Of a stretch of DNA of 64,000 nt, positions 22,225 to 39,928 are shown in pieces (the stretch's first letter is position 1; each line of letters starts with the position of its first letter). Location of the stretch: assembly GCA_963706325.1 (NCBI GenBank), contig CAVPLT010000004.1, positions 320,001-384,000 of the forward strand, read 5' to 3'. Source of the DNA: an uncultured Nitrospiraceae bacterium. Lineage in GTDB: Bacteria > Nitrospirota > Nitrospiria > Nitrospirales > Nitrospiraceae. The notes below the pieces were generated by a model. The model saw only the letters and a program-made list of their open reading frames with translations. It did not search any database and was not told where the DNA came from. The translations under genes and the position numbers were made by a program.

Positions 22225-23654
22225 AATTGAAGACTTTCCACTCTATACAACTCGTTCCGGCGGTTGCAAGTTGCTCCGGCTAATCGGTCATTGGAACGAG
22301 TATTGGTGAAGCGACCAACAATTGCAAACCGTATTGGCGGGTACTTAAGACTTGATGAAAAAGGAAACCGCCCTCCGAGCCGAATTATTGTGCGCTACAA
22401 CACCTACCGAGGGTGGCAGGACGCTAAGTGCAGGCGTCAGGGCGTGCTCACCCATCGTTGAAAGTTGTGCAGGTCTGCACCTGCTTCTCCTGGGTTAATC
22501 GGCCCTTTCGAAATTCCTCCGTCCGGAGAGCGTACCACTCCAGCATGGGAGCCCGTACCGGTCTTCCGTTTCTTCCGTGATCTGTCAAAAATCGACATAG
22601 GATCGGAGTTGTCCGACGACAAGCTCTTCCAATCGGCTTCACTAAAGAAGCCAACGTACGAGCACACTGTTCCGCTCGATCCTCCTTGAGCTCTACTACT
22701 CACCGGACGCCATACTCTTGCCAGTTTTCTAGTTCCTTGCTTTGGATTTCCAACCGTTTGTCATAGATGCTGAAAAGCTCTGGCTCTGAGGTCTGCCGAA
22801 ATACAGGGTCTCGCCATTACTGGCACTGCTGCCGTAAGTGGCGTCGAAGGCAATATGCCGGACCTGGAACGCACGCGTCACATATTGACCGGCTGACATC
22901 GCCTCTCAAGCGGTCGCCACGGGGACTGATTCGGTCCGATCGTTCAGCGCACAATCGATTCGAGTCACATGCTCCTATTGTGCATGGACCCATTTCAACA
23001 GCATAGCGATCTGCTCCAAGTCAACGCAGAGGCAAGCGCCCCAGACAGATCGACATGGATTTCATTCGGACGACGAGGAGCATTGTTCTCCAGTCTCCGA
23101 CCCCATGCAGTCCGTCTGATTTGACATCCAGGACAGGATAGTCTCGAAAGCCTTCTTTTCGCCTTGCTCCAGTCTCCACCCAGCACCGGCATGGCGACCT
23201 GCGGAGTACTCGCCAAAACCGTAAACGCGGGCCAGTCAATGGAGAGGGTGAAGACTGAATCCATGGAACCTATCGAACCCATGTAAGGAGCGCTGTGGCG
23301 AGCGCCCGCGTGTTACCAGGACGAGAGCCATTCCGCTCCGCACCCCGGCCTTCCGGCATGGGCGCGGACCGGCTTTACCGCTTGATGGTGAGACGGAGAA
23401 TCCTGTTTTCAGCGGCCTTCCTGAGCCGGTCGAGTTAGTTTCTGTCGCACGACGACGAACGCCTTTCCTCCGACTTCTCTGGTCACACTTTATCGCGTCC
23501 ATCCTGCCATCACCATGCTCATCAAACAGCCACGGGAACATACTCCGAGACGGTCGTCCCTACCTCTGGGTACACTTCTCAACCAGCCTGCGTTCCTGCT
23601 CCGTGACTTTGAATTGTAGCGTTCAGTTTTCGTGTCGTCCTGTGTCATGTGCGT

Positions 23655-23910
23655 CCGGAGCTGATCGCCAACCGGTTTATGACTTGGTGTGAGGACTGGG
23701 GTATGGAGCCGCGGCATATCCTGCCGGGCAAGCCTGATCAGAATGCCTTCATCGAGCGTTTCAATCAAATTTACCGGGCCGAGTACTGAATGCCTATGTG
23801 TTTGAGTCGCTAGCCCAAGTCCAGGAGATCAGTGCTGAATGGTTGCGGAGTTATAACGAGAGCGACTCCATGATGCATTGGCAGGCTCCAGCCCGCTACG
23901 TATCGAGCCA
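23655..23910 (+). mobile_element. IS3-family transposase remnant (integrase core C-terminal part, frameshifted)
   Basis: Translates as PELIANRFMTWC..ILPGKPDQNAFIERFN..YR / LNAYVFESL..V......W...YN..HDAL, the IS3 orfB C-terminal pattern. Confidence 0.8.
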
Positions 23911-24048
23911 ATAAAAAGGGAGGATTGGCCTTGTCATTGACGACCAAGATTGGCTGATCCGGTTGTTGTCAGGGTAACTAGGCGGACAGTGGAGAGGGTC
24001 TACTTACTGAAAACACTAAGTAGACGACCGCGGTTAAGCTAAGTTGCT

Positions 24049-24567
24049 CTACCTGGCTCGAAACCCAGTTATTCTTGAACCTAAGATATCTTCGATCACT
24101 CTCGCCTTCTCATCAAAAAGACCCTCCTTGTCCCTGTCCAGCTGGTCGTCAATGTTGTGACCATTTTTAAGCATATAGGACTCGTAGTATCGGGTGAGTC
24201 GCTCTGAAAAACGCCTTTATTTCTCATGTATTGGCATGTCGCAATTGTTTTTCGTGTGCGGGAAATAGGCATGTAGTTTCGACCCGATGACGCAAGTGTC
24301 CACTCTCCATTGTTTATAGATGCGATTCAACTCGTCCTCAAGAATATGGCTATTCCTGCTTTGGTGTGCGTGACCGGCATTGAACATGTAAACGGACATT
24401 ACCATTGTCATCACCAGTTCACTTATCTCGGCAATGAGTGCTGTTTTGATGCCTGAATCTCTTTGTGTTTCTTGCCACCGCCGTGTAATCCATGGGACGA
24501 GTAGCGCAAGAGCAACTGGGACCAGAACGATGTCTAATACGTCTTTTAACGAATCAAAACCCATCAT
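24049..24567 (-). pseudogene. Hypothetical membrane-anchored protein interrupted by an in-frame stop
   Basis: After TAA at 24219-24217 the same frame stays open for 55 codons to TAG at 24051-24049. Confidence 0.55.
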
Positions 24568-24942
24568 AATGTTGAGTGACTATTGCAGATTACGTACCCA
24601 GCAAAACGTCTCGCTGGAAGACCACTGATGGGTGGACGTGTGCCACTTCAATGCAACGTGTCTCATAACAACACATAGTTGCTAATCGGGAAATACCACC
24701 AAATTATTTTTTACGCTCGAGCATAATTGTGGCCAAGAATGCTTTACTACAACGAGACATTTCGATACAAACACACCCTCCTAGATGTCCCGGTCAGCAT
24801 CGCTGCTTCCAGAGAAAAAACGAATGGCTACAGAAAGATGAACAATCAGTAATGCGGCGTTGTGAATCCATCCACGGTCTGACCTTTCTAGGATAGTAAA
24901 TGTTTGTCCACGTCAGTGTTGCCAAAGAGAGACCGGCTGATT

Positions 24943-24958
24943 CGGCATAATGCTTGCT
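24943..24958 (+). promoter_or_regulatory. Putative sigma54 -24/-12 promoter of the activator gene
   Basis: CGGCATAATGCTTGCT = GG-N10-GC with GGCA..TTGC; GGAGG and ATG 24987 shortly downstream. Confidence 0.6.
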
Positions 24959-24986
24959 GCTTTTCCCTCTGCAGGAGGGTGCAAAC

Positions 24987-26315
24987 ATGTCCTGTAAGCG
25001 CACACCTGTACAAAAGATCTTGTTAGCCAGGCTAACGAATACCCTATCCGAAAAGTCGACGCAGCAGCTGTCGCGTATCGGTGTAATAACAGTTCCGCCA
25101 CAGCTAGAGGCTGATATTCGTGATGCGTTTGAGAGCCAGTCGCGCAAGATCACCGATATTTCTCTTCGGCCGGAGTTAGCAATAAGAACCCTGACTGACA
25201 TCCATCAGCAAAACCCACATCTCATAATTATGATGATCATTGGTGGAGAAAACCCCGAGGAATGTTCGGAGTTACCTGTCGAATCCTATGCGAGTGGCGG
25301 TACAACTTCTCCCAGCCCGAATGAAAGGACGGAACCCGTACTGCATCATCGCTTAGGGGTGACTAGAACAGATTCCGGTGGTCGCGGTCTTACGGGCGGA
25401 GAAAATCTGATAGGGAACAGCTCGACCATGGCACGCCTGCGAGCATTTGTGGCGAATGTTGCCAAAACGGAATGCAACGTCCTAATCACGGGAGAGACGG
25501 GGACAGGAAAGGAATTGGTTGCAGATCTCATTCATAGAAACGGTAGCCGGATGGGAAAACCCTTCGTGAAGGTCAATTGTGCAGCGATCCCTGACTCCTT
25601 ACTCGAAAGTGAAATATTCGGTTATGAGCGAGGAGCGTTTACAGGTGCATATGCTAGAACGCAAGGTAAGCTTGAACAGGCAAATACTGGAACTATTCTC
25701 TTCGATGAAATAGGCGACATGAGTCCCTACGCTCAAGCCAAAGTTTTGAGATCTATTGAATCTGGTGAAGTGACTAGGCTGGGCGGCCGTACCCCCACTA
25801 AATTGGATGTGCGGATACTGGCCGCAACCAATCGGGATTTGGAATCAATGGCCATGCAGGATCACTTTAGAAAGGATCTCTTTTTTCGGCTCAACGTCGC
25901 ACGAGTCCATTTGCCACCGTTACGAGACCGGAAGTCTGACATCTCGAAAATTGCCGAGCATTACCTGGATCATTTTAATGTTACGTTTGGAGCTGAGGTA
26001 ACAGGCCTGGCTCAAGATACACTCGAAGGTTTTCTTACTCATGACTGGCCAGGAAATGTGCGTGAACTGAGGAATCTCCTCGAAGGTGTATTCGTCGTAA
26101 AGCGTTCGTCACAGATCACAGCTGCTGATTTGCCAGATTGGTTTTCCGAGCGTCTCAAGAACAAATGTTCTGTCATTCATGAATCAAGCAAGATTCTGTC
26201 CGTTCTGCTAGCGACGAACTGGAATAAGTCAAAGGCAGCCGGCGAGCTTCATTGGTCGCGTATGACGTTGTACCGCAAGCTCGCTAAATACAACCTTCAT
26301 CATGTATCGAACTGA
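24987..26315 (+). CDS. Sigma54-dependent transcriptional activator (bEBP; AAA+ and Fis-type HTH)
   Basis: Walker A GETGTGKE, GAFTGA, LFDEIG, AATNRDL, WPGNVREL, C-terminal NKSKAA..L..SRMTLYRKL; atypical N-terminus. Confidence 0.95.
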   Translation: MSCKRTPVQKILLARLTNTLSEKSTQQLSRIGVITVPPQLEADIRDAFESQSRKITDISLRPELAIRTLTDIHQQNPHLIIMMIIGGENPEECSELPVESYASGGTTSPSPNERTEPVLHHRLGVTRTDSGGRGLTGGENLIGNSSTMARLRAFVANVAKTECNVLITGETGTGKELVADLIHRNGSRMGKPFVKVNCAAIPDSLLESEIFGYERGAFTGAYARTQGKLEQANTGTILFDEIGDMSPYAQAKVLRSIESGEVTRLGGRTPTKLDVRILAATNRDLESMAMQDHFRKDLFFRLNVARVHLPPLRDRKSDISKIAEHYLDHFNVTFGAEVTGLAQDTLEGFLTHDWPGNVRELRNLLEGVFVVKRSSQITAADLPDWFSERLKNKCSVIHESSKILSVLLATNWNKSKAAGELHWSRMTLYRKLAKYNLHHVSN

Positions 26316-26741
26316 AAAGGAACAGAAATAGCGAGATCGAATTGCCCCTAGTTTCTGTAATAACCATTCACAACGTCCTCCCTCTCGCTAGTGCCCGACA
26401 TATCAGGTCCCGAATCATTCTAATCCGCGGAAGCTAGCTGGTGCGTTGGTCCTGTCTCGACAACGGCCGCGATCCTAGACTTAACTGCGCTCTAGGTAAG
26501 CGACTTTCAGAATGAAGCCTGCTAGTCGTGGTTCTGCATGTTTATGTAAGCGTGCCAGCTGCCTTGGTTTCCTTTCCATGTCCACGTTGCACAGGTGTAT
26601 TTCACGTGTTTGCCTTCTTCAGTTCTCCTTGCTGTATCGTTACCGAGTTTTGTTACAAGCTCAGTGACACCTCCCGCTTGTGAAGTAAATCCACAATTCC
26701 TCTCGACTTACACACTTTGAGGAGCGGGTTGTGTACCACCC

Positions 26742-26762
26742 TGTAACAGTTAGGGCGTTACA
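26742..26762. promoter_or_regulatory. Candidate upstream activator sequence
   Basis: Inverted repeat TGTAAC-N9-GTTACA about 95 bp upstream of the putative -24 element. Confidence 0.4.
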
Positions 26763-26854
26763 CTTTTGCATTCTTAAGCCTGATCAGAACGTCACATTCC
26801 CTTACACGCGCGCAGATGAGGCGGTTTTTATCGAGTTGGGAATACCATTCGACT

Positions 26855-26871
26855 CTGGTCTCTGAGTTGCA
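26855..26871 (+). promoter_or_regulatory. Putative sigma54 -24/-12 promoter of the structural operon
   Basis: CTGGTCTCTGAGTTGCA = TGG-N10-GC with TTGCA; RBS and ATG 26906 about 35 nt downstream. Confidence 0.55.
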
Positions 26872-26905
26872 CAGTAGGAATTCCGTTGAAGGAAGGAACA
26901 ATGCA

Positions 26906-27160
26906 ATGCAGCCAGAAGGTGTTCAGAGGGGCGATAAGGACCCAATGCCGTATCGGTATAGCAACTACTTCAAGATTGGATACAACAGAGAAGAGTTTCT
27001 AATGGATTTTGGTCAACTGTATGAGGGGAGCGGAAATGGCCCCATGCATACCCGATTGGTCACCCTGCCTGTTATTGCCAAAGCGCTTCTCTCAGTACTT
27101 GCCAAATCCGTGCGTCAGTATGAGGAGAAGTATGGTGCCATTCAGGAAGACAAGGAATAG
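26906..27160 (+). CDS. DUF3467-like small protein
   Basis: YSNYFKIGYNREEFLMDFGQ...RLV..P..AK.L..VL..SVRQYEEKYGAI pattern; RBS GAAGGAAGGA. Confidence 0.75.
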   Translation: MQPEGVQRGDKDPMPYRYSNYFKIGYNREEFLMDFGQLYEGSGNGPMHTRLVTLPVIAKALLSVLAKSVRQYEEKYGAIQEDKE

Positions 27161-27204
27161 CGACTCTGGAGTCATAAACGCGGCGTTCCCGCAGAAACGC
27201 TGAT

Positions 27205-28143
27205 TTGGAATCAGGATTAGTGAGTAAAGGGTTATTTCAAGTGAATGAAACGAAGAATGACGCGAAACCGGTCGGATCGTGTCGCTGCAAGACCGCAATG
27301 GGTTTTGCTGGCGATATGAAATCCAGATCGGGTTGCGAGCAAGCCTTCCCCACGCAGAGACATACGTCGGCGCCGTTTACACCGCCGAAGATCTCTCTCG
27401 GGCATATCCCAGCGGGTTGGCTTGGAACGCAAAAAACGGTTGAGCATGTACAGGCGCTGATTCGAGCCGGAGCGAAAGATTTTTATGTTCGCCAGAAGGC
27501 CATCGACATCTTGCTGGAGAAGCAAGTCAAGCCCAAAGACTACCTGGCCGAGATCAAGGCCCTCTTCGAGTGGGTCCAGCAACATATCCGTTATACCAAG
27601 GATACGTTTCAGGTGGAGGTGCTTCATTCCGCTAAGCGCATGCTGGAGTTACGGGCCGGCGATTGCGACGACATGGCCATCCTACTGGGGGCGATGTTGG
27701 AGGCAATCGGACATCCGGTGCGGCTGGCGCTCAGCGGACCAAACCCATTCCGACAGGACCTCTTTACCCATATTTATCTGGAGGTGTTTCACAAAGGTCG
27801 CTGGATCCCGTTGGACGCCACCATGTCCTACCCGATGGGCTGGGCGCCAAGAACATTGGTGAAAAAGATCATCGCGATTGAAAGGAGGTCGAACATGATG
27901 GCCGAGGATATGGAACTGCAAGGCATCGACGGTGTCGGGGCCGTACCCGACTGGCTAAAAGGATTGCTTCGGACGGTACGCACGGAGGCCGTGCAGCCAA
28001 AAGATGCGCGGATCAAAACGCTATGGGATCTGTTACGGCAACGGCAATTGCTGCGCCGAAGCCCATGGCTCAAGGCGGTACTGCGCCGGATCTGGGACCG
28101 CGGGCTGTCCGCCGGCCTCACCCGCGTACAGCGAGTCGGATAA
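27205..28143 (+). CDS. Transglutaminase-like cysteine enzyme (putative protease); start uncertain; C-terminal extension probably frameshifted
   Basis: LFEWVQQHIRY, GDCDD (Cys), FTHIY (His), WIPLDAT (Asp). Confidence 0.85.
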   Translation: MESGLVSKGLFQVNETKNDAKPVGSCRCKTAMGFAGDMKSRSGCEQAFPTQRHTSAPFTPPKISLGHIPAGWLGTQKTVEHVQALIRAGAKDFYVRQKAIDILLEKQVKPKDYLAEIKALFEWVQQHIRYTKDTFQVEVLHSAKRMLELRAGDCDDMAILLGAMLEAIGHPVRLALSGPNPFRQDLFTHIYLEVFHKGRWIPLDATMSYPMGWAPRTLVKKIIAIERRSNMMAEDMELQGIDGVGAVPDWLKGLLRTVRTEAVQPKDARIKTLWDLLRQRQLLRRSPWLKAVLRRIWDRGLSAGLTRVQRVG

Positions 28144-28354
28144 AACGGGAGCTGCGGCTTTGGAGAATTTTGCCACCGAAACCAGTGAGTGCGACGACGG
28201 CGCATCGCAATTCAATCATCAGCTCTGTACGGCGAGCCGCTGTCCAAGCGGGTCGGCCCGTGACGCTCACACCAGTCGCGTCGGTGCGGCGTGCGCCGAT
28301 GCAGCTGGTACGGCCGGTACACATGCAACCAGTTGGCGCGAGAGCGGTAAGAAG

Positions 28355-28720
28355 ATGAACTGCCGTTGCGAAGTATGTTGCAGGGATGGCAGCGACAATA
28401 CGTCGCTCATGAGGCAAACCTTCGAAGCTATGCCTGTTCAATACATGCGGCGCGGGATTGGCCTCTATTATGCGTTCAACGGTTTTGAACCGTCCCGCGT
28501 AATGAAAGTTCATCATCACAGGCTCATCCCGTCGATGGTGGTTGAACTGGGTGAACTGGTGGCTCTGATGTATCGCTCAGACAAAGGACGGCCTGGTCAA
28601 CCGCGTACCTACATTCATCGGATGGAAAATCCACCGCGCCTGGTGAGCAACATCGAAGGGACGCAGCTCTACATCGTGGGCGGAAGCTACCAGGTCACTC
28701 CACGAGGGATCGAAGGCTAG
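28355..28720 (+). CDS. Hypothetical protein of the structural operon
   Basis: ATGA-coupled to upstream frame; globular-looking C-terminus YIH....PRL....QLYIVGGSYQVTPRGIEG. Confidence 0.65.
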   Translation: MNCRCEVCCRDGSDNTSLMRQTFEAMPVQYMRRGIGLYYAFNGFEPSRVMKVHHHRLIPSMVVELGELVALMYRSDKGRPGQPRTYIHRMENPPRLVSNIEGTQLYIVGGSYQVTPRGIEG

Positions 28721-28787: not shown

Positions 28788-29105
28788 ATGCGAAAGGACC
28801 AACAGCTCGGGCTGGATGAGTTGATGATTGTGAACCCCAGTTCATCGGGGACAGAAGCCATGTTTCTTGGCGAAGACGGCACTGTGTATCAGGTACAAGG
28901 CCTGGGTGAAGACAATACACAGCAAGGAATGGGGCAATACTTTCTGGGCGGAGATGGTTCGCTGTATCAAGTGCAAGGCTTCAAAGAGGGCGGTTCAGCC
29001 GGGCCCGCCAAAAGTTCAGACGAAAACCTGGGAGAAGAGGACGGCCCTGCCCTTGGCCGGTACTTCCTTGGGGCCGACGGTGCGCTCTATGAGGTGGTTC
29101 GATAG
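28788..29105 (+). CDS. Small acidic protein with three FLGxDGx(L/V)Y(Q/E)V repeats
   Basis: FLGEDGTVYQV, FLGGDGSLYQV, FLGADGALYEV; purine-rich RBS. Confidence 0.75.
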   Translation: MRKDQQLGLDELMIVNPSSSGTEAMFLGEDGTVYQVQGLGEDNTQQGMGQYFLGGDGSLYQVQGFKEGGSAGPAKSSDENLGEEDGPALGRYFLGADGALYEVVR

Positions 29106-29134: not shown

Positions 29135-29800
29135 ATGGCAAAAGTTCAAGGTGTGCAAGAAAAACTTCATTCCCCCCTCTACGATTGTTTCTTCGTGAAG
29201 GAAGAATTCAAGGAGCAACAAAATCCAAAAAAATTCACAGACTTTATGACCGATCCACGGGTGATTCGCTTCTTTGTGGATATCCAGAGTAAGACCAAGT
29301 TGGAAACGAACCTTCAAGCTTCCGGTGTCCTACCCAGTCTGAATAGGTTCGAGGCGAGGGCGTTGCGCGTGGTGGTGTCGAACCTGCGCCCCAAAGAGTT
29401 TGGAGACACTACGGGGCCAGGCAAAAGTCCCCGCTCCCCCGCCAATGAAAGTGCGATCTTGGCGGACCTAATCTACAACTCGGTGACCTCGTTGATAGTG
29501 GGGGAAAAGATCATGATCGAGATGCCCACTTTCTGGTTTCCATCAGGCGCTGGTGTCAGTCCGGGCCTCACCGTCTCCAACCACGGCGAACCTGATCCGA
29601 CTGCCACATTTCGTTTCGCCGAGCCGGTGTATATCGAGCCACAGCAGAACTTTCGTGTAGAGATGGCGTTCCCTCAGGGAGTACCTGGAGTAGCCGCCGG
29701 AGTAATTACAGCAGATGACACAAGGAAGTTGGCTCACGTGACGGGTCCGCTCCGCATCTGGGTCGTCCTGGACGGCTATCTGACACGCGATGTCCAGTAA
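29135..29800 (+). CDS. Putative single jelly-roll major capsid-like protein
   Basis: Strong RBS AAGGAGG; beta-strand-like pattern PLYD..FF..TNL..G.LP...F...ALRV...PVYIEPQQNFRVEM...IWVVLDGYL; CDS secure, fold is inference. Confidence 0.55.
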   Translation: MAKVQGVQEKLHSPLYDCFFVKEEFKEQQNPKKFTDFMTDPRVIRFFVDIQSKTKLETNLQASGVLPSLNRFEARALRVVVSNLRPKEFGDTTGPGKSPRSPANESAILADLIYNSVTSLIVGEKIMIEMPTFWFPSGAGVSPGLTVSNHGEPDPTATFRFAEPVYIEPQQNFRVEMAFPQGVPGVAAGVITADDTRKLAHVTGPLRIWVVLDGYLTRDVQ

Positions 29801-29828
29801 TCGATGAAAACCAAGAGGGAGGCAAACC

Positions 29829-30809
29829 ATGCGGAACTTAAGTGAAGACCAAGCGACCCAGATGATGGGTATCGGCTACCTCGGCGAGGTGCGCCAGGGG
29901 CCGGATGGGAATCTCTATCAATATGTGCAAGGTGTGGATGGTCTGGGCAATCCCATCGGTGCTTGGTGGAAGCGATTAGTGCGTCGGGCACTACCCCTGG
30001 CCCGACAATTCGCCCCGTTTATTCCGGGCGGGGCTGCGGCGCTCACAGCAGTGACTCCGTTTCTGAAACAGGCCGGCGTGGAAGGGTCTGAGGAGCTGGG
30101 GGCTTTTCACGGACTGGCGGCGGGTGAAGAGCTTCAGGGTATAAGCGACGACGCCATGACCCAGCTGATGGGTGTCGGCTACCTCGGCGAAGTGCGCCAG
30201 GGGCCGGATGGGAATCTCTACCAATATGTGCAGGGTGTGAATGGTCTGGGCAATCCCATCGGCGGCTTTTGGAGCAGAATGAAGCGTGGACTAAAGGCCG
30301 TTCATAGCTTGGCTCAACGAGGGGCATCGTTTATCCCCGGCCCCTATGGAGCAGCGATAGCAACGGGTCTCAAGCTAGCGACCCCACTTCTGCAAAAAGC
30401 CGGTGTTGCGGGTCATGACGGGATGGGCGCGCTCTACCAAGCTCCAGATGGTTCGCTCTACCAGGGCGTTTCGGAGAATGAAGCATTGCAAGGACTTGAT
30501 GACGACGCGGAACTTCGGGGGCTAGAGGCGGATGACGAGTTGCATGGACTCAATGATGACCCGGAACTGCGTGGCTTCGATGAGGGCGAAGAACTGCGTG
30601 GTCTGAACGATGATATGGAGCTGAGGGGGCTGGATGATAGCGAGGATCTGCGAGGTTTCGATGCCGAGCCGGAGATGCAGGGGATGGAAGGTTACGTTCG
30701 ACAGGACGGCGTTAGCGGACTGGAAGCCTTCGTGCCGCAGGAGCCGCCGCAGACGCGTTGGCACGTGGTACCCGGCCAGACGCCAGAGGTATGGAAACCA
30801 TTGTGGTAA
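29829..30809 (+). CDS. Repeat-rich Gly/acidic protein (putative scaffold/core polyprotein)
   Basis: RBS GGGAGG; duplicated ~100 aa module; eight 9-aa acidic repeats. Confidence 0.8.
   Translation: MRNLSEDQATQMMGIGYLGEVRQGPDGNLYQYVQGVDGLGNPIGAWWKRLVRRALPLARQFAPFIPGGAAALTAVTPFLKQAGVEGSEELGAFHGLAAGEELQGISDDAMTQLMGVGYLGEVRQGPDGNLYQYVQGVNGLGNPIGGFWSRMKRGLKAVHSLAQRGASFIPGPYGAAIATGLKLATPLLQKAGVAGHDGMGALYQAPDGSLYQGVSENEALQGLDDDAELRGLEADDELHGLNDDPELRGFDEGEELRGLNDDMELRGLDDSEDLRGFDAEPEMQGMEGYVRQDGVSGLEAFVPQEPPQTRWHVVPGQTPEVWKPLW
29855..30262 (+). repeat. Intragenic direct repeat (29855-29959 and 30158-30262)
   Basis: Two near-identical 105 bp copies offset by 303 bp, encoding TQxMGxGYLGEVRQGPDGNLYQYVQGVxGLGNPIG. 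Confidence 0.95.
30477..30692 (+). repeat. Eight degenerate 27-bp tandem repeats (xxELxG[L/F]xx)
   Basis: NEALQGLDD DAELRGLEA DDELHGLND DPELRGFDE GEELRGLND DMELRGLDD SEDLRGFDA EPEMQGMEG. Confidence 0.9.
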
Positions 30810-30899
30810 GCCGAGCTGCTAGATTTCCATCGCGGATGTCGCCTGCGCATTCCGCAGGTACAACTAGGCGCTTAGGATACGAGTGTGGAGGTAATGACC

Positions 30900-31559
30900 A
30901 TGCGATTAGGGCTTAGTCAAGACCAGCAACAGGTACCCGTTCGTTCAGCGTCGGACATCATGCCGCTGCCGATTGCTGTGCCTACCACCAAAGAGATTCC
31001 CTACGACTATGTGGCCAAGTTCACGTTGCGAGGAATACGCGGCAATCGTGTACAGGATGTGATCAACATCAGCATCGAAGGTGGGTTTGTGACTGTGGCG
31101 ATTGGGTATAGCTTCATCCCGGCTAAGTTGCAAACTTCGAATACGGGAACTGCAAGTGTACTCAGCTCAGCGGCAAGTGACGGCGTGAGCGGGCTGATCA
31201 ATAGCATCCTATCTTTGGAGAACGATCCACGCATGCTGGCGCAATGCCTGCTCGTCCGACTCTGTGGAATCGATTTCAAGTACAGCATCATCGATAGCGG
31301 GAGCGGCCGTGAGTTGCAGAATCAGCCGATTCACAATATCGCCGGGCTGGGAGAGGCGACCGGCGAGCGGCCTTTCCGTCCACTGGCTAAACCTATGCTG
31401 TTCATGCCCCGCTCGACTATCCGTATTGAAGTTGAAGAAATCTCGGAGGGGCTGATTTATGGTTACGAGGACACGGTGACCAAACAGCGTGTTGGTGCTG
31501 AGCTTTTCATGGTGTTGCACGGCTACAAAATACTGGGGTACGGAACGGGGTTGTCATGA
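30900..31559 (+). CDS. Second putative jelly-roll structural protein
   Basis: GGAGG RBS; PYDY..F, FKYSIIDSGSGRELQN, PMLFMPRSTIRIEV, LFMVLHGYK echo the layout of 29135-29800; fold is inference. Confidence 0.5.
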   Translation: MRLGLSQDQQQVPVRSASDIMPLPIAVPTTKEIPYDYVAKFTLRGIRGNRVQDVINISIEGGFVTVAIGYSFIPAKLQTSNTGTASVLSSAASDGVSGLINSILSLENDPRMLAQCLLVRLCGIDFKYSIIDSGSGRELQNQPIHNIAGLGEATGERPFRPLAKPMLFMPRSTIRIEVEEISEGLIYGYEDTVTKQRVGAELFMVLHGYKILGYGTGLS

Positions 31560-32062
31560 ACTTGAACCATGCTTGCGATGTCCATCGAGACATCGGTTAT
31601 TCCAACGTCTGCCAGGTCTGCGGCGTTCCCTTAGATGCCGGGTATTTCGATGTCGCCAGCATTAAAAAGGCGCCACAAAATGTCGGAGATGAAGTCGAAG
31701 TCGCGCGCTACGAGCTAAACTCCCAGTATTGCGGCACCTTGCTCTATTTCACCCAGTATGCGGAACAAGAAACATCCAAGCAGCAAGTGATTCCCCATAC
31801 ACCTGGTTATGAGTGGATTGTTCTCTGCAACAACCAGCCGCGGGCTCCCTACCTGCCCACAAGTCTGATCTTGAACCCTTGGGGCGCCACCAACCTTTCT
31901 ATCGACCTCAGATTGGAAGAGGGATGTACCGTGAGGTTGGTGGTTAGAAAAGTTACGCCGGGAGCGGATGAAACAGAGGTGAAATTGTCTCAAGTAGGAG
32001 GCCGACTCCTGGGTCGCTCCTGGTACAACACCATCTATGGAGGCACGCCAAATCGCTTGTAA
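31556..32062 (+). CDS. Third putative jelly-roll (penton/minor) structural protein
   Basis: ATGA coupling; beta-rich pattern ending LRLEEGCTVRLVV...GGRLLGRSW; N-terminal CQVC. Confidence 0.45.
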   Translation: MNLNHACDVHRDIGYSNVCQVCGVPLDAGYFDVASIKKAPQNVGDEVEVARYELNSQYCGTLLYFTQYAEQETSKQQVIPHTPGYEWIVLCNNQPRAPYLPTSLILNPWGATNLSIDLRLEEGCTVRLVVRKVTPGADETEVKLSQVGGRLLGRSWYNTIYGGTPNRL

Positions 32063-32159: not shown

Positions 32160-32321
32160 GCTCTATCTCATGCTGGCAATTGCCAGCCCAATGTATGCTG
32201 CAGGGGAATCCGTAGATGTAGCTGCATACCGACACAGGGCTCGGATGGGGCATTCCACGATTCAAATCGCAGAGTTAAATATTTTTCCATGACACATCAA
32301 CACTATCCATGAAACTCAACG
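32160..32321 (+). pseudogene. Degenerate duplicate of the leader and 5' end of the 34214 gene
   Basis: Aligns by eye to 34160-34317; ATG TAT changed to ATG TAG at 32216-32221, plus indels. Confidence 0.85.
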
Positions 32322-32440
32322 AGGATGTTGGAGTGAATTCCTCACCTGGCATGCTAAGACGATGATGAATGGTCTATTACAAGATTAACTCCTCAATCGA
32401 CCTTAACTTTAAGAAGACTACAAAGCCGGAGGATGACACC

Positions 32441-34117
32441 ATGTATGTTGCAACTGGCCTGGGAGAACGGCGCAGACCTCTATGCACAGGAAAGTCCAGC
32501 AACATGGTCCTGTCGAGCAATCCCCGACCCGGTGAGCGTTGGCATTTGTCGGGGCCGGCGCCGAGTTACCGGCCACCCATCGACAAGGGCGGACAGCCCG
32601 TCGACGACAGCCACGGCCATCATTTGCTCACGATTCTCGCCGGACCGTCGCGTTGGCAAACCTACCTGACACAGGCGATGGCCAATCGTGCGACGACGGT
32701 TCCGAGGAACTTCTTTCGAGTCGTCACGAGCCCAAACCAGGTCCCCAAGCACCTGCGGCATCTCTTTAGGCTCAGAAGCGACGGCAGCATGGTCGGCGGG
32801 ACGATCGACCGTTGGACGCGCACGATCTACATGGTTCCCGCGCCCGTCCTCCGGCAGGAAACACGGCTTGAATACGCGCTGCACGAAGCGGTGCACCTGT
32901 TCGCGGATCCGCATGCGCCGACAGAGGTGGCGTGCGCGGCGCCATGCATCGGGACCTTCCAGCGGCGGTACGGCGAAGGCTTCGGCGAGGGCCTCACCCA
33001 GGTGATCACCGAGGACATCATGAATGCGCAAGGCATTAGCCGTTATTATCGCGATCACCCCTATGACGTGTTCACCGCGCCAGTGCGGGAAGTGATCAGG
33101 ATCTTTGGTGTCGATCTGATGGCCCGTGCCTATTTCTTTGGCGACAAGGCTTCGTTGGAGGCGGCCATGAAGGCGCGCTGGAGTGATCGGTGGCAGCAGG
33201 TCGCGGGGCTGACGACGGTCAAAAACTCGAATGGAGCGCTCGCAGAGATCAAGAGGCTCGAAACCGCGTATGCCGCTGCCGCACGCCTGCGCCAGATGAT
33301 TCAGCAGGGACCGAGGGGTGATTTCCCGACGCCGTCGCGGACCCGGATGTTTGCAGGTTTTGGTTTCACGCCCACGCCCCGGCGCTTGAGCCCGCAGCCG
33401 CAGCCGCCGCGATTGAGCATCCTCACGATCGACAGCTTTGATGTTCAAAAGTCCACAATTAAGCCCGAGATGAGACCTGCGCTGGCTGGATTCGTCGATC
33501 ACGTGAAGGCGAGCTGGCAGTCGACGGGCCAGTCGATCGGCGTCGTGTGCCTGAAGGGACACACCGATTCAACCGGCCTCGAAGCGTTCAACCGAGGTCT
33601 TGGCGACCGGCGCGCGGAGGCGGTGAAACAACAAATCCTTGCGTTGCTCGGGCCGTTCATCAATCGAGTGCTTGTGGAGATCGAGGCCAGCCCGGGAAAG
33701 ACGCAGCCGAGGGCGAACAATAGCACCGCTGCCGGGCGCGCCGCGAACCGGCGCGTCGAGATCTTCATCGAGGGGCCGATTCCTTCTGCGTCAGATTGGC
33801 CGGGAGGGAAGGAGAAGACCACCAGATGGCCGCCTGACATTCCCGATCCCGACAAGGGCGAGGCGTGGGATCAGTTCCGGTTCAAGCGCGGCATCCCCGA
33901 AGATGCGCTAGGGGGAAGATCGGTCCAGGATTTCCTGACGAATCTCTGCGCGCCTGTGTTCGGGAAGCGCTGCAAGGGCTTCATCGACAAGGCCGTCGAC
34001 AAGGGATGCGAGGGCATCGCCGCGCTGCTTGAGCAGCTCGGCGGGCGTGTCACCGGGGCGCAGAAGGAAGAGGTCATGCAGCGGTGCCGCGAGGCGGCGG
34101 GCAGACGCGTGCGCTAG
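32441..34117 (+). CDS. HEXXH zinc-metallopeptidase-like domain fused to OmpA-like domain
   Basis: GGAGG RBS; ALHEAVHLF and downstream GEGLT; GHTDSTG..FN..L..RRAEAV..NRRVEI; starts MYVATGLGE. Confidence 0.8.
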   Translation: MYVATGLGERRRPLCTGKSSNMVLSSNPRPGERWHLSGPAPSYRPPIDKGGQPVDDSHGHHLLTILAGPSRWQTYLTQAMANRATTVPRNFFRVVTSPNQVPKHLRHLFRLRSDGSMVGGTIDRWTRTIYMVPAPVLRQETRLEYALHEAVHLFADPHAPTEVACAAPCIGTFQRRYGEGFGEGLTQVITEDIMNAQGISRYYRDHPYDVFTAPVREVIRIFGVDLMARAYFFGDKASLEAAMKARWSDRWQQVAGLTTVKNSNGALAEIKRLETAYAAAARLRQMIQQGPRGDFPTPSRTRMFAGFGFTPTPRRLSPQPQPPRLSILTIDSFDVQKSTIKPEMRPALAGFVDHVKASWQSTGQSIGVVCLKGHTDSTGLEAFNRGLGDRRAEAVKQQILALLGPFINRVLVEIEASPGKTQPRANNSTAAGRAANRRVEIFIEGPIPSASDWPGGKEKTTRWPPDIPDPDKGEAWDQFRFKRGIPEDALGGRSVQDFLTNLCAPVFGKRCKGFIDKAVDKGCEGIAALLEQLGGRVTGAQKEEVMQRCREAAGRRVR

Positions 34118-35254: not shown

Positions 35255-36340
35255 ATGTACGCGCTGATCGGTTTAGGAGAGCCCCAACCCACAGTCTCTT
35301 GCAGGGGGTGGGAAAAGGATCCGGAGAGCTTCAGTAAACGGGTGGCGGAACACTATGCGCGGACGGTGCTGGGAAAGTCCATGAGCGCAAGGCGGATCGT
35401 GCCGTATTATCCGTCCGGAGATAAGAGATTTATGGAGGTGCAATTTGCACCCGACCTGGCAGTAGGCGTCAGCTTCGTGAAGATCCCGGATTACGTCATT
35501 GCCCTTCGTTTGCGCGCACAGCCGCCCGGGCCCGCTCGCTACTACACGTATTCGTGCACGCCGGACGGAAATCTAATTCTGAGCGAGCAGAAGAAGCCCT
35601 CCGCCGTCCCAGCAAGCCCTACAATGCGGGTGGCTCCAGGTAACGCTGGGCGAACCGTTGGATGGTTGGGCGAAACAGCCCCGCAGTCGATCGCCCCAGC
35701 GTTCCGCTTTTTGTGCCCTCCTGGGTGCGCGCCGAACGCGACGAACGCGTGCATCGGGATCGTTCGCCGCGCGATTCAAGACGCGATTTGGCTGGCCGAG
35801 AATGCCGCCGAGCAACTTACGGCCCGCGACGATGAAGCCGTACGTCTATTCCGTTCCTTCTTTGGAGATCCAGAACGTCTCGTTCCCTGGGCAAACAATC
35901 GGCCCGCTGCCGATCTTGTCGCCGGTCGCTTCCGTGCCGTGGGCCGTGGGTTTCGGACGCGCGTGCCGCACATTCGCTGCGCAGTGGTTGGCCCTGGAGT
36001 AGAACAATGCGCCGGTGAAAACGCTTTTGCGCTGCCGCGTAGCGTGCCAACCGCTACCCTTCCGCTTCCGCGGAACACGATCCACCTTTGTCCGCCGTTT
36101 TGGAGCGTCGCGCCAGCAGGCACTGTCTCCAGATTCTGGCGGGCCGCCATCTTACTTCACGAAATGCTTCACCTGCTTTTCTGGGAATTTTTCGGGCACC
36201 AGGCAAATCTGCCTCGCACGGGTGATCCTGAAGAGCGGCGTCGAGACAATTCCCATTGCTACGAGGCATTTGCCCTACGCGTGGCCAAACAAGGAGCCGA
36301 TCCTAATGATGTCACGGTGTGCAATGAAAGGCCTTTTTGA
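35255..36340 (+). CDS. M35/aspzincin-like metallopeptidase with extra N-terminal domain
   Basis: TIHLCPPFW, ILLHEMLH, DNSHCYEAFA; starts MYALIGLGE. Confidence 0.7.
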   Translation: MYALIGLGEPQPTVSCRGWEKDPESFSKRVAEHYARTVLGKSMSARRIVPYYPSGDKRFMEVQFAPDLAVGVSFVKIPDYVIALRLRAQPPGPARYYTYSCTPDGNLILSEQKKPSAVPASPTMRVAPGNAGRTVGWLGETAPQSIAPAFRFLCPPGCAPNATNACIGIVRRAIQDAIWLAENAAEQLTARDDEAVRLFRSFFGDPERLVPWANNRPAADLVAGRFRAVGRGFRTRVPHIRCAVVGPGVEQCAGENAFALPRSVPTATLPLPRNTIHLCPPFWSVAPAGTVSRFWRAAILLHEMLHLLFWEFFGHQANLPRTGDPEERRRDNSHCYEAFALRVAKQGADPNDVTVCNERPF

Positions 36341-36605: not shown

Positions 36606-37781
36606 ATGTACGTGGGGACGAGAGATGCGTTAGGGCGACTCCCAACGTCATACATTTATGATTCTTCGATAAAGGGTATCGGACAGATATCGCCAACACC
36701 GATCCTTCTGCGGAAAGCTCTCCATTCGGAAACTGGCCCGTGGGATCCGGCGAGTGAGATCGAGCAGGCGCTAAAGGCCAAAAATTGGGGGAAGGCGTTG
36801 GAACTGGCGATCGAAGCGGGCCAGCGTGACGAGGTCGAACTGACAAATCTGATTTTATTCGCGCAGAATCCACAATTGCTTCGCACGTCGCTGGATCCGA
36901 AGGCGAAGAACTTCAAGACCCTGAGCGGGCAGTGGCGCACGATCCTGACGAAGGACGTGCGTTCGGCGATCGAACGGATGTCGGTGGACCATGACATGGC
37001 TGTGCACGGCAAGTTCGTCGCGGAGCGAGACCCGCAGTTTTGGGGACTCAATGGGAAAATCTTTCGTGACATCGTGCGATCCGTGGCCGCGGAAGTGGAT
37101 CTGAATCCGGGCTTCTTGTCTGCCGTGCTGCTGGCAGAGGTGGGGAGCGCCGCGCCGTACTTGAAGACGGGTCCGGTGTTCTCTTTCTTTACAGGAACGG
37201 ATGACTTCTTCGCCCAGCAGGAGCGACTGAAAACGCACGTTCCGGCGTTTGCCAACGTGCATTTCGACAAAACGAAGACCTTTGAAAACATCAACGAGAC
37301 GGGCCGAAAGGTAAAAAGCATCTTTTTTGATACCGGCAAAGATGCGGCGCGGGCGACGGCGGTCTATCTAGCGTATGCACGGCTCAAGTTACAGGTTGCG
37401 GCGAAGACGAATGGCGGAGATTTCGATACCCTGCCTGTGCAAGTGCAATTCGCGCTGATGCGGATTGCGATGGCAGCCGGGCACGGGGGAATCGATTTAA
37501 ACGGTAACTTTGTCTGGTTCCTGAAGAAGGATGGCAAATCCCTGCAGGTCAAGGCTGGGACAAAAGGGGCTGTGTTGGTTGGCGTCGCGCGTTGGCTGTA
37601 TCGCGTCCTGAAGGGTGAGGATATCTTTGTCCGAGACTGGACAGGCCGCACATTTCCGAGCACCGCAAAAGCGACGTCGCGAAACGCAACGATTCTGGTC
37701 GCGCAGGCGCTTCATTTGTCGGACTGGCATTTTGGGATTTCTTTGGTGCAGCGGCCGAAACGGCCGGTGCGTCCCTGGTAG
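36606..37781 (+). CDS. Putative lysozyme/transglycosylase-fold protein
   Basis: AAGGAGG RBS; IVRSVAAEVDLNPGFLSAVLLAE resembles SLT motif I with catalytic Glu; starts MYVGTRDALG. Confidence 0.5.
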   Translation: MYVGTRDALGRLPTSYIYDSSIKGIGQISPTPILLRKALHSETGPWDPASEIEQALKAKNWGKALELAIEAGQRDEVELTNLILFAQNPQLLRTSLDPKAKNFKTLSGQWRTILTKDVRSAIERMSVDHDMAVHGKFVAERDPQFWGLNGKIFRDIVRSVAAEVDLNPGFLSAVLLAEVGSAAPYLKTGPVFSFFTGTDDFFAQQERLKTHVPAFANVHFDKTKTFENINETGRKVKSIFFDTGKDAARATAVYLAYARLKLQVAAKTNGGDFDTLPVQVQFALMRIAMAAGHGGIDLNGNFVWFLKKDGKSLQVKAGTKGAVLVGVARWLYRVLKGEDIFVRDWTGRTFPSTAKATSRNATILVAQALHLSDWHFGISLVQRPKRPVRPW

Positions 37782-38341
37782 ACGAAGACACCACTTATAC
37801 GAGAGCGGATCAGCTTGGAGCGAGAGTCCGCCAAATAGGAGAGGTCGACCTCGTCCTCGTCTGAGCCGAAGCTGGCATCAACCGCAGACTTCATCCCAGC
37901 GAAACAGGTGATGTAGGGAAAGGGAGAAGACGTATGACAACGATGGCTTCATCACCGCATGGTGCGAAGGTATGGAGGCACCTGGGCATAGGGAGTGCTG
38001 CCCGCAGGCGGTAAGCCGTTGGTGCCCATGTATACTCGTCCCACACGCTGCGAGGGCCGTGCACATGTATCAGGCAGTACGCGCCAACCGCGTGGGTGAG
38101 CTTGGTACACGCTCGAGTCTCAGCTAGGGTAGCCGGTTCTGTCCTAATCGATGTTCCTATGCGTCGCATCGGGTGTTTGGCAATCGGGCTGGCCGATCTG
38201 CGCGACTGGACTCAATTCAAAATGTTCTGCCGTGGGAGTTGTATGTCGCGCACGGGTCGCTCAAGTATCGGGGCTTGAATGGAAAAGTGACCGTTCTCGC
38301 GTCGGCGTAGGATGCGCCCTCCTACGAAGTGGAGGTTAAAG

Positions 38342-39928
38342 ATGAGCAACGAAACAAGAGATTCTGGTCGTACAGTATCCTCTAACGCTCGAGTCACCTG
38401 TCACTTCATCTGGCCACTCAGCAACAGCGCCACGCCCGACGAAATGAATACGTCCTATGGTCCGCGTATTGACGCTGATCGCTGGGACTTTCATGACGGC
38501 ATCGACCTGCCCGCTCGTGTTGGCACACCGGTCCATGCCATGGCGGATGGCGCGGTGCATCGCGCTGGGCCGGCGGATAAGACGGGCCCGGTCAGGGTTT
38601 CGGCTCAACGCATATCCTTCTTAAAGTCGTCGATCCAACGGACGGACAGCATGATCTATTTCTTGTCTACCTGCATCTCGACAGCATCGCGGATGGTGTG
38701 ATCTCCAGGCGTACCGGTGCATCAGGGTGACGTGATTGGCGCGGTGGGTCAGGAAGACGCGACCTATCCCCATCTGCATTTCGAGTTCAGGAAAGGCGGG
38801 CCACAAGAACGGCGCAGTGTTCACCCGCTACACTATCTGCCCTACCTCAATACGGCGAACTTTAGGCAGCTCCGTCTGGATCGCTGCAATTTTTACCGCG
38901 ACGACGATGGCGAGAAACGGATCGTGAGGCTTGGCTTTGCAGTCCGGAACCGCCGGGAAGGTGATCTACAGGCTGTTCATGTGGAATTGATCGGCGACGG
39001 TGTCGCAACCACGCGAACTGCACGTCGACTTCGATGATCGGGAAACCATCAATAGTGACAAAGGAGATGACCAAGCCTTCAAGAACGGAATTGCCGTGGA
39101 AGGCTACCAGAAATCCAATCTGAAAGGCGAAGGCTTGAACGATCTGCAGTATGGCGTACTGATCGAGGATATTCCTCCGCAATACGATTCCGTCAAACTT
39201 CGAGTCCAGGATGTTAAGAACAGAGAAACCGAAAAGCGCTGAGTTTCCTCTTCCCAAACTCGACGTCGGCAAGCAACCCGTCAATAGTCGTGCGGGTTTT
39301 GAAGGTCAGATATTTCCGCCGCCGGGGTGGGAATTGAATCTCTTACCGGGCAATGTCTGTCGGCCGGACCCAGCCGCCGCTCTCGCAGGTTCGCAGGGCC
39401 TACTCTGTCAGGACCTCCAGAGTGTGCAAGGGACACTGATCCGCGCAGGGCTGCGTTTCGCCTTGCCAGTCAACCGTTTGCCTGTCCGCTCCCATGTCCT
39501 GGCGTCTGAGGGCAGATATCAAGCCAGCAGAATTGCAAGTGGATGAAGGATTGGTGATTCATCCTTTGGCTTTCTTGGCAGACAGCAATTTGGTGGCTGC
39601 CGCCTGCCTGCGGAAGATCAGAGGCGATAAATTCGTGACGGGTGTTCTCATTCGAAGCGCAGACGGTTTGTTCAGGGAAAGAATCGATGTGAACGAGGGA
39701 GAAATTTTAAGGAATGTGCCGGTTAGGTGGGAACTTGAGGTGCTCAGAGTGGGCACCAGGCAAACAACCGCCGTAGTGCGACTGAACAACAATGTGATAG
39801 CCCGCATCAACGGCGACACCAGAAGCGTCGAGCCCGATTCTGGTTGTGCGGGGATTTTGCATAAGCACAGCGGGTTACAGATTAGCCTGCACATCGATCA
39901 ATTGCTCCTGACGGAAGCGCCTCGGTAG
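38342..39928 (+). pseudogene. M23 peptidase-domain gene broken by several frameshifts
   Basis: WPL, YGPR, FHDGIDL, GTPVHA, VYLHL, QGDVIGAVG, PHLHFE spread across consecutive overlapping frames. Confidence 0.8.

Follow-up and report, generated by a model that had tools for sequence, protein, structure and literature searches.

We analysed a 64,000-nucleotide stretch of DNA (the window) that lies inside a 1.14-Mb contig (CAVPLT010000004.1) of the 4.2-Mb genome of an uncultured Nitrospiraceae bacterium, and that carries an operon of about 13-15 kb with 3 genes at its core, designated A, B, and C. The likeliest product of A, B, and C is an icosahedral shell. Our preferred explanation of the operon, to which we give somewhat better than even chances, is that it encodes a domesticated jelly-roll particle that is free of any genome, loads tagged effector proteins, and delivers them to other cells. 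A bolder form of this, in which the operon represents an undescribed, widespread, tail-less icosahedral system for extracellular delivery, derived from a domesticated vertical single jelly-roll virus, with maturation by a transglutaminase-fold protease and with interchangeable antibacterial enzymes loaded by an N-terminal tag of about 10 residues that came from viral particle proteins, is more tentative, and we place it slightly on the doubtful side of even.

A, B, and C as candidate shell proteins

The first-pass annotation of the window described 3 probable single jelly-roll paralogs, 2 of them capsid-like and one penton-like, and associated them with viruses of the Helvetiavirae type. The genes are as follows.

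29135-29800, plus strand: A, 221 amino acids (aa), single jelly-roll major capsid-like protein
30900-31559, plus strand: B, 219 aa from the ATG at 30900, probable second jelly-roll shell protein (minor or second capsid protein) of presumed fold
31556-32062, plus strand: C, 168 aa, penton-like single jelly-roll protein

All 3 open reading frames (ORFs) and the 6 motifs quoted for them are found in the translations. The longest ORF for B runs from 30885 to 31559, giving 224 aa from a GTG, but a GGAGG site favors the ATG at 30900, which is most likely the start. The very strong ribosome-binding site (RBS) claimed for A is there, as AAGGAGG directly before its ATG, and the 3 proteins are soluble by the measure that none has a 19-residue hydrophobic stretch (maximum Kyte-Doolittle (KD) values 1.14, 1.39, and 1.13 for A, B, and C). 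Because A has 2,291 relatives at E ≤ 0.001, the nearest named ones being Nitrospira, and because dN/dS is 0.09 to 0.20 in 17 of 17 pairwise comparisons against Nitrospira-type copies, A, B, and C are real genes under purifying selection. That they are 3 paralogs stands only for A and B, which have a weak sequence link, HHalign scoring 39% (E = 3 × 10−4 over 53 columns), and 23.6% with a wider alignment compared to at most 2.2% in 10 shuffles. HHalign finds no sequence link of C to A or of C to B, so C is joined to the set by fold only. None of the 3 has a Pfam or PHROG family, and there is no sequence match in the Protein Data Bank (PDB) for the profiles of A, B, C, or the viral A-like family discussed below. 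A has no match among the INPHARED phages or in PLSDB, and IMG/VR returns nothing with a single A sequence, with B, or with C as the query.

Models of A (101-row alignment, mean predicted local distance difference test (pLDDT) 83.7) and of C (44 rows, pLDDT 84.3) were searched against 48,161 chains with a structure comparison tool that rates Z under 8 as middling. The best solved match of A is 6oj0_T of Sulfolobus polyhedral virus 1 (SPV1), at Z = 7.6 with a root mean square deviation (rmsd) of 3.6 over 135 aligned residues, the chain names of 6oj0 being assigned from length. Next come satellite panicum mosaic virus and P23-77 VP17 (Z = 6.2 each), PHM (5.9), and HCIV-1 (5.8). Foldseek also puts SPV1 first for A (E = 3.7 × 10−4), with SH1 third, and in BFVD the top match is I1ZBH9 (E = 2.4 × 10−5, 211 aa), with SPV1 VP4 third; by equal length, we infer that I1ZBH9 is gp46, and I1ZBI0 gp47, of the cultured phage SSIP-1. 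For C, the best match is 6h82_b at Z = 10.1 (rmsd 2.7, 111 aligned), the next ones scoring 7.3 to 7.4. That chain is HHIV-2 ORF22, which is the penton (PMC6414509, in part; here and below, "in part" marks a source available as a partial text). BFVD gives generic, nameless matches to C. Both models are beta-sandwiches, and the solved structures closest to them are capsid proteins of the vertical single jelly-roll type for A and a penton for C. The capsid-like call for A is supported by the SPV1 match together with homology to a gene family of tail-less viruses, and the penton-like call for C holds at the level of fold. The monomer modeling and fold search proposed with those calls, carried out for A and C, put capsid and penton proteins on top. 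A carbohydrate-binding or enzyme domain was considered for A; jelly rolls of the PHM/PNGase type rank below the capsids at Z ≤ 5.9, and we rejected that reading because A is homologous to the viral family.

With respect to B, 2 of its 3 listed nearest ESM clusters match those of A in size and length, and the nearest named families there are PM2 P2 domains, with scores under 0.8 that count as leads only. The viral relatives of B are a multi-copy family encoded downstream of the A-like gene, and B is a probable second or minor shell protein by these sequence relationships. A complex prediction for A plus B scored 0.00, which is evidence neither way. On the whole, we consider it quite likely that A, B, and C assemble into a shell. 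It is improbable that the jelly rolls instead form a surface lattice, a vesicle coat, or a fiber on which tagged enzymes are displayed. The exosporium proteins ExsFA/BxpB and the Ena fiber proteins do appear among the lower-ranked fold matches (Z = 5 to 6.5), and amphipathic helices in the 326-aa repeat protein encoded between A and B might suit such a structure, but the top matches are capsid and penton proteins, A is homologous over its full length to a viral family, and a penton-like gene is present in 55 of 64 loci.

A conserved chromosomal operon

A, B, and C are the core of a larger operon, and the 326-aa repeat gene sitting between A and B had been omitted from the first-pass annotation. 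The other genes of the operon, up to the downstream array described further on, are these.

24954-26315, plus strand: sigma-54-dependent activator (PF00158, E = 7 × 10−65), probable regulator of the operon
26816-27160, plus strand: DUF3467 protein (PF11950), accessory, with a tblastn match in 1 of 64 loci
27205-28358, plus strand: transglutaminase-fold Cys-His-Asp protein (PF01841) with a basic amphipathic C-terminal tail
28355-28720, plus strand: conserved protein of about 120 aa, of viral origin, present at 55 of 64 loci and aligned by HHalign (96%) with the C-terminal domain of a viral cluster
28788-29105, plus strand: small acidic protein, YQVQG(LG) repeats, found at 28 of 64 loci, candidate inner scaffold
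29829-30809, plus strand: 326-aa repeat protein, in 40 of 64 loci, candidate scaffold or membrane binder

The 120-aa gene is listed as an ORF from 28004 to 28720, and its start at 28355 is taken from an ATGA overlap. The 326-aa protein has YQYVQGVxGLG repeats, amphipathic basic helices, and acidic LxGL repeats, with the highest hydrophobic moment among 13 operon proteins, and YQ..GLG repeats are found in 2 core proteins. No 19-residue stretch above KD 1.46, and no membrane-anchored protein, is found among the 7 core proteins. The Cys, His, and Asp of the transglutaminase fold are kept in 54, 55, and 55 of 57 rows, making this protein a candidate for a maturation or leader-cutting protease.

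Scanning the species genomes of GTDB, we obtained 64 loci. The transglutaminase, A, B, and C occur together in 49 of them, and in all 49 these 4 markers keep that order. The operon as a whole reads transglutaminase-fold protein, small proteins, A, repeat protein, B, C. Among the remaining 15 loci, one has A alone (L044) and the others are short or end near the gene; B is in 62 of the 64, and most gaps in the penton-like gene are contig ends. The carriers, many of them soil and water bacteria, span at least 9 phyla and include the cultured Methylomonas methanica NCIMB 11130, a Streptomyces, Mycolicibacterium vaccae, and Leptolyngbya JSC-1. Within the window's own family, the distribution is patchy, at 11 of 301 genomes, one of those being matched weakly, within a virus-like region. 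Of the 64 loci, 28 encode a sigma-54 activator on the strand of the operon.

The locus is a chromosomal operon and not a provirus. Of 203 upstream proteins called, 81 were compared with NCBIfam, and none belongs to a phage family there; the ones that match are ordinary enzymes, transporters, and regulators. Twelve tblastn queries for integrase, resolvase, and ATPase, a search of low sensitivity, gave no match in the 64 loci; no tyrosine integrase is found on the contig between 2,376 and 596,582, no tRNA is in the window, and the Pfam and PHROG matches of the operon include neither a terminase nor a portal. The first-pass reading is partly supported: for the shell genes, but neither for the implied virus of Helvetiavirae type nor for B as a second major capsid protein. 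The locus is a chromosomal operon in which a packaging ATPase, an integrase, a replication gene, and a membrane-anchored protein went undetected. A cryptic provirus, or a capsid-encoding satellite that uses or disturbs a helper virus, is the least likely of the explanations that we weighed. Four genes are of viral ancestry, the spread is patchy with signs of transfer, and positions 24000 to 28000 of the window have lower GC content, with at their left edge (23600-23900) what we take to be a remnant resembling an IS3-type transposase. Set against these, no integration or replication gene was found near the 64 loci, the window has no tRNA, selection is purifying, and in a tree, made by a quick method with long branches, the 53 operon rows form one branch apart from the 6 viral rows. 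On that branch, Cyanobacteria, Chloroflexota, and Actinomycetota each group by phylum, whereas Pseudomonadota and Nitrospirota mix.

Viral relatives of the operon

With an alignment of A as the query, IMG/VR yields one contig, and its 42-protein family aligns to A with HHalign 98.2% (E = 4 × 10−14 over 179 columns). This A-related family leads to 13 viral loci (L065-L077). The 5 viral records examined (G001-G005) are 35 to 45 kb and rated complete, 3 of them with direct terminal repeats; none has a tyrosine integrase, 2 have resolvases, and the others have a methylase or helicase domain. Together these are apparently an undescribed group of 33- to 45-kb tail-less bacterial viruses. They have one conserved A-like gene, several B-like paralogs, a membrane-anchored transglutaminase, and Arg-rich proteins.

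Only 4 of 22 viral gene clusters match the bacterial loci, namely the transglutaminase (55 loci), the 120-aa domain (26), A (61), and the B-like cluster (11), and these 4 homologs keep the same order in the viruses as in the operon. HHalign scores between the viral and operon versions are 97.5% for the transglutaminase, 96.0% for the 120-aa domain, 97.8% to 98.2% for A, and, against the viral multi-copy family, 46.6% to 46.8% for B (E = 2 × 10−4; shuffled controls ≤ 0.44). The viral cluster at the position of C matches C weakly, at 16.5% with a score of 27 versus at most 18.3 in 20 shuffles, and hmmsearch with the C profile against viral ORFs finds nothing significant. The transglutaminase is also homologous to a structural protein of SSIP-1, gp34, at 98.5% (E = 4 × 10−15). 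We saw no packaging ATPase with a Walker-A motif in the IMG/VR viruses. The viral Arg-rich protein, which is beside the capsid gene in 13 of 13 viral loci, has no counterpart in the bacterial loci, and neither do the viral membrane-anchored proteins.

A carrier resembling a gene transfer agent (GTA), in which an ATPase-free shell would close around host DNA by means of Arg-rich tails and the tagged hydrolases would be entry enzymes, might draw on several of these features. The transglutaminase has a basic tail, Arg-rich ORFs follow C in a second subtype of the operon, SPV1 has no packaging ATPase (PMC8812541, in part), and a viral relative has a tagged lytic transglycosylase. Yet the Arg-rich protein found in every viral locus is without a homolog in the bacterial ones, and arrays of several unrelated enzymes exceed the needs of entry, so that we give this explanation as low a standing as the displayed lattice or fiber.

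One further region, L096 (G084:C3:17000-36000, minus strand), contains transglutaminase-like, A-like (92%), and B-like (17%) ORFs in viral order. It is virus-like and in a genome of the window's family, which may point to a host, or else to a mis-binned contig. A 264-aa ORF in that genome has no match to C.

A leader sequence on the downstream enzymes

The genes after C vary between loci, and their products often start with a leader of the form MY-hydrophobic-x(2-12)-GLG. This pattern was composed after viewing these sequences. Among same-strand ORFs downstream of C and within 7 kb of it, 60 of 396 have the leader, in 33 of 55 loci. The corresponding counts are 3 of 224 for the opposite strand, 2 of 539 for ORFs upstream, and 18 of 7,251 genome-wide, 5 of the 18 being in this operon. 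Once trimmed of 30 N-terminal residues, the 60 tagged proteins sort into 23 clusters. An N-terminal hydrophobic stretch is present in 0 of the 60, versus 584 of 2,118 long genome ORFs, and the tagged enzymes are accordingly predicted to be without signal peptides. In the window, 4 genes downstream of C are candidate cargo, each with an RBS at the leader's ATG.

32441-34117, plus strand: cargo 1, 558 aa, leader MYVATGLGE, HExxH motif read from the sequence, OmpA-like PF00691
34214-34951, plus strand: cargo 2, 245 aa, leader MYVRTDTGLGW, no Pfam match
35255-36340, plus strand: cargo 3, 361 aa, leader MYALIGLGE, M35-like zinc metallopeptidase (PF14521, E = 0.003, below the cut-off)
36606-37781, plus strand: cargo 4, 391 aa, leader MYVGTRDALGR, no Pfam match

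A set of 92 proteins was picked by hand, 89 of them downstream proteins and 3 others. Pfam recognizes 42, as 21 peptidoglycan-acting or -binding proteins, 12 proteases, 3 lipases, 2 methyltransferases, 2 regulators, and 2 with a DUF only. The peptidoglycan set has amidase, M15, VanY, M74, M23, M14, extensin-like, serine hydrolase, peptidoglycan-binding, OmpA, and GH75 members. The viruses have the tag in a looser pattern, Y..G[LM]G, in 13 of 350 ORFs versus 0 of 212 on the opposite strand. Of the 13 viral tagged proteins, 12 have a C-terminal hydrophobic stretch at KD ≥ 1.2 (7 at 1.6), against 2 and 1, respectively, of 46 bacterial ones. Since the viral tag is on membrane-anchored proteins and the bacterial tag on soluble ones, the tag seems to have come from proteins of the viral particle and to have been transferred to soluble enzymes. 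There is a strong probability, in our estimate, that the leader is a loading or processing tag, and a comparably good one that the cargo acts outside the producing cell.

The second of these is where an intracellular nanocompartment would differ. Encapsulins take in their cargo by short cargo-loading peptides, and an encapsulin-like compartment could store tagged hydrolases in the producer for timed lysis, wall remodeling, or differentiation. The same shell and leader evidence would serve that explanation, no spike, holin, or membrane protein was found, and many of the cargo families could act on the cell's own wall. We nevertheless regard it as unlikely, if the foremost of the alternatives, in that the cargo varies between close relatives (23 clusters among 60 proteins) and includes proteases, lipases, and chitosanase, the patchy presence in 11 of 301 genomes of the family suits conflict systems more than housekeeping, and a penton-like vertex protein has been retained.

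The proposed particle and what weighs against it

As we picture it, the operon would be a pared-down set of structural genes from a tail-less bacterial virus of the single jelly-roll type, like SSIP-1 or SPV1, that bacteria have kept. A would make the lattice, C the 5-fold vertices, and B a minor or second shell component, with the GLG-repeat proteins as an inner scaffold. The downstream enzymes would enter the particle by their N-terminal MY-x(2-12)-GLG leader, and the transglutaminase-fold protein would probably cleave at or near that leader during maturation. The regulator would control particle production, to be followed by release, and the particle would then bring peptidoglycan hydrolases, proteases, and lipases to other cells, much as an extracellular contractile injection system (eCIS) does but without a tail.

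Several points weigh against delivery by such a particle. The particle, its loading, its release, and the toxicity of its cargo are all proposed from genes; no spike, holin, or membrane-anchored protein was identified in the operon, which leaves release and entry without explanation, and the viral models assemble on a membrane. A contractile sheath family occurs elsewhere in 3 of 5 carrier genomes checked, so the tagged enzymes could use another delivery route. The leader could be a protease site only, or could bind something other than the shell, and some array genes are without it (M23, methyltransferases). Among the 92 sampled proteins, 50 have no Pfam family. The best Z for A, 7.6, falls in the range that the search tool calls middling, and the jelly-roll fold of B is presumed. 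The tblastn search for an ATPase or integrase, with 12 queries (3 of them viral ATPases), was of low sensitivity, and the absence of an ATPase cannot separate the operon from a virus because none was seen in the viral relatives either and SPV1 is also without one.

Comparison with known systems

SSIP-1 has a bacterial host, an internal membrane, and 2 major capsid proteins (PMC6356626, in part). The operon resembles it in the transglutaminase related to gp34 and in that the top BFVD match of A has the length of gp46; by sequence profile, A scores 3.7% against gp46, and the viral family gives nothing against it. SSIP-1 differs in being an actual virus, of 43.8 kb, that encodes Walker-A proteins and numerous membrane-anchored ones. 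SPV1, of the Portogloboviridae, is the top solved match of A in both fold searches, with chains of 6oj0 matched by A and C. Its single jelly-roll VP4 forms hexamers and its VP10 pentamers (PMC8459092). It is, however, an archaeal virus with a 20-kb genome, a nucleoprotein, and an inner lipid layer, none of which was identified in the operon; the Portogloboviridae traits of a 20-kb circular genome, a nucleoprotein core, and a Sulfolobales host contrast with a chromosomal operon in bacteria.

In the Halopanivirales (SH1, HCIV-1, HHIV-2, P23-77; PMC12643093; PMC6414509, in part), the HHIV-2 penton resembles C, and VP17 and the HCIV-1 and SH1 capsid chains resemble A (Z = 5 to 6.2), but profile comparisons detect no sequence homology of A, B, or C to HHIV-2 VP4, VP7, or penton. 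The realm of Helvetiavirae is Singelaviria (PMC12714852, in part). The single jelly-roll penton of that group has a counterpart in C at the fold level; as to its 2 capsid proteins, A fits by fold, and B is weakly linked to A and has multi-copy relatives in viruses. An FtsK/HerA-type ATPase, virus-coded membrane proteins, and a replicating or integrating double-stranded DNA genome were not found in the operon. The IMG/VR viruses are alike in encoding homologs, in matching order, of the transglutaminase, the 120-aa protein, A, B, and, by a weak match, C, along with N-terminal Y..G[LM]G tags, but they have a resolvase, methylase, helicase, Arg-rich, and membrane-anchored proteins that the operon lacks.

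The eCIS derive from phages and are encoded in the chromosomes of environmental bacteria by operons that have toxin genes at the 3' end and regulators next to them (PMC8213781, in part), and variable genes, here candidate effectors, are likewise found at the 3' end of this operon. The vehicle of an eCIS is a contractile tail, whereas the one proposed here is capsid-like, with no sheath, tube, or baseplate among the operon's matches. Encapsulins and GTAs are virus-derived icosahedral shells kept by cells, and encapsulins enclose cargo proteins (PMC8987985, in part); the available text of that review contains neither "jelly" nor "Varidnaviria". These shells have the HK97 fold of tailed phages, in contrast to the models of A and C, which are jelly-roll-like beta-sandwiches. 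The operon resembles SSIP-1, SPV1, and the Halopanivirales in parts, would work like an eCIS or encapsulin under the preferred explanation, and is assigned to none of them.

To our knowledge, the known virus-derived bacterial particles (tailocins, eCIS, type VI secretion systems, GTAs, encapsulins) are all of tailed-phage origin (PMC8987985, in part). If our explanation is right, this would add a particle from the tail-less jelly-roll lineage, present in at least 9 phyla and in cultured strains, and the chance that it is an analog of eCIS and encapsulins from another viral lineage tips modestly in favor. No description of the operon was found in the literature examined, and subscription journals or bioRxiv supplements may hold one; the elements of the Charybdis preprint (10.1101/2025.08.03.668216, in part) are different. 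The cultured carriers Methylomonas methanica NCIMB 11130, Streptomyces, and Leptolyngbya JSC-1 make the proposal testable at once, and in a simple host one could test both shell assembly without membrane-anchored proteins and the transglutaminase-fold protein as a maturation protease for the GLG tag. The leader would give a rule for finding candidate antibacterial enzymes, many of them without a known family, and might serve as a short, portable tag for loading a protein nanoparticle.

Frame breaks, cassette remnants, and variants of the operon

The transglutaminase gene has a frame break near 28113 that puts its tail in another frame. Another broken gene ends the array.

38312-39928, plus strand: M23 peptidase gene, without a leader, in several frames, PF01551 on 2 pieces

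The transglutaminase gene is read as continuous in 4 of 4 runs, and the M23 gene is a single 531-aa ORF in L005, with single-base differences at 4 places in other runs. Both sets of breaks are probably assembly errors, and as the one is absent from all 4 runs and the others differ between runs, an intact operon is probable. Scans for promoters and terminators did no better than chance.

Positions 37900 to 38300 of the window hold a fragment like a leader-bearing family whose complete members are at L001:17313-18017 and L016:15244-15948; it may be a fifth cargo gene that is broken or wrongly assembled. Upstream of cargo 1, at 32216 to 32325, the beginning of cargo 2 recurs as a short copy (tblastn, 74% across 23 residues), which may be a remnant of cassette exchange at the leader.

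In 6 loci (L003, L010, L012, L013, L022, and L023), the sigma-54 activator is not upstream but follows the cargo array, accompanied by a small gene for a receiver domain. Within 10 kb to the left and right of the A homolog of L044 (L044:10001-10984), there is no transglutaminase, B, or C. In the second subtype (L035-L063, L097), A has an insertion of 70 to 200 aa, and there is a tandem two-domain B of about 460 aa and a further B; if the fold holds, the 460-aa protein is a double jelly-roll-like fusion. Two A paralogs are present in L049, L053, and L057-L059. The arrays of L042, L046, and L097 contain a leaderless S-adenosylmethionine-dependent methyltransferase, often beside genes whose leader has a Cys-rich GCGxxCxC extension.

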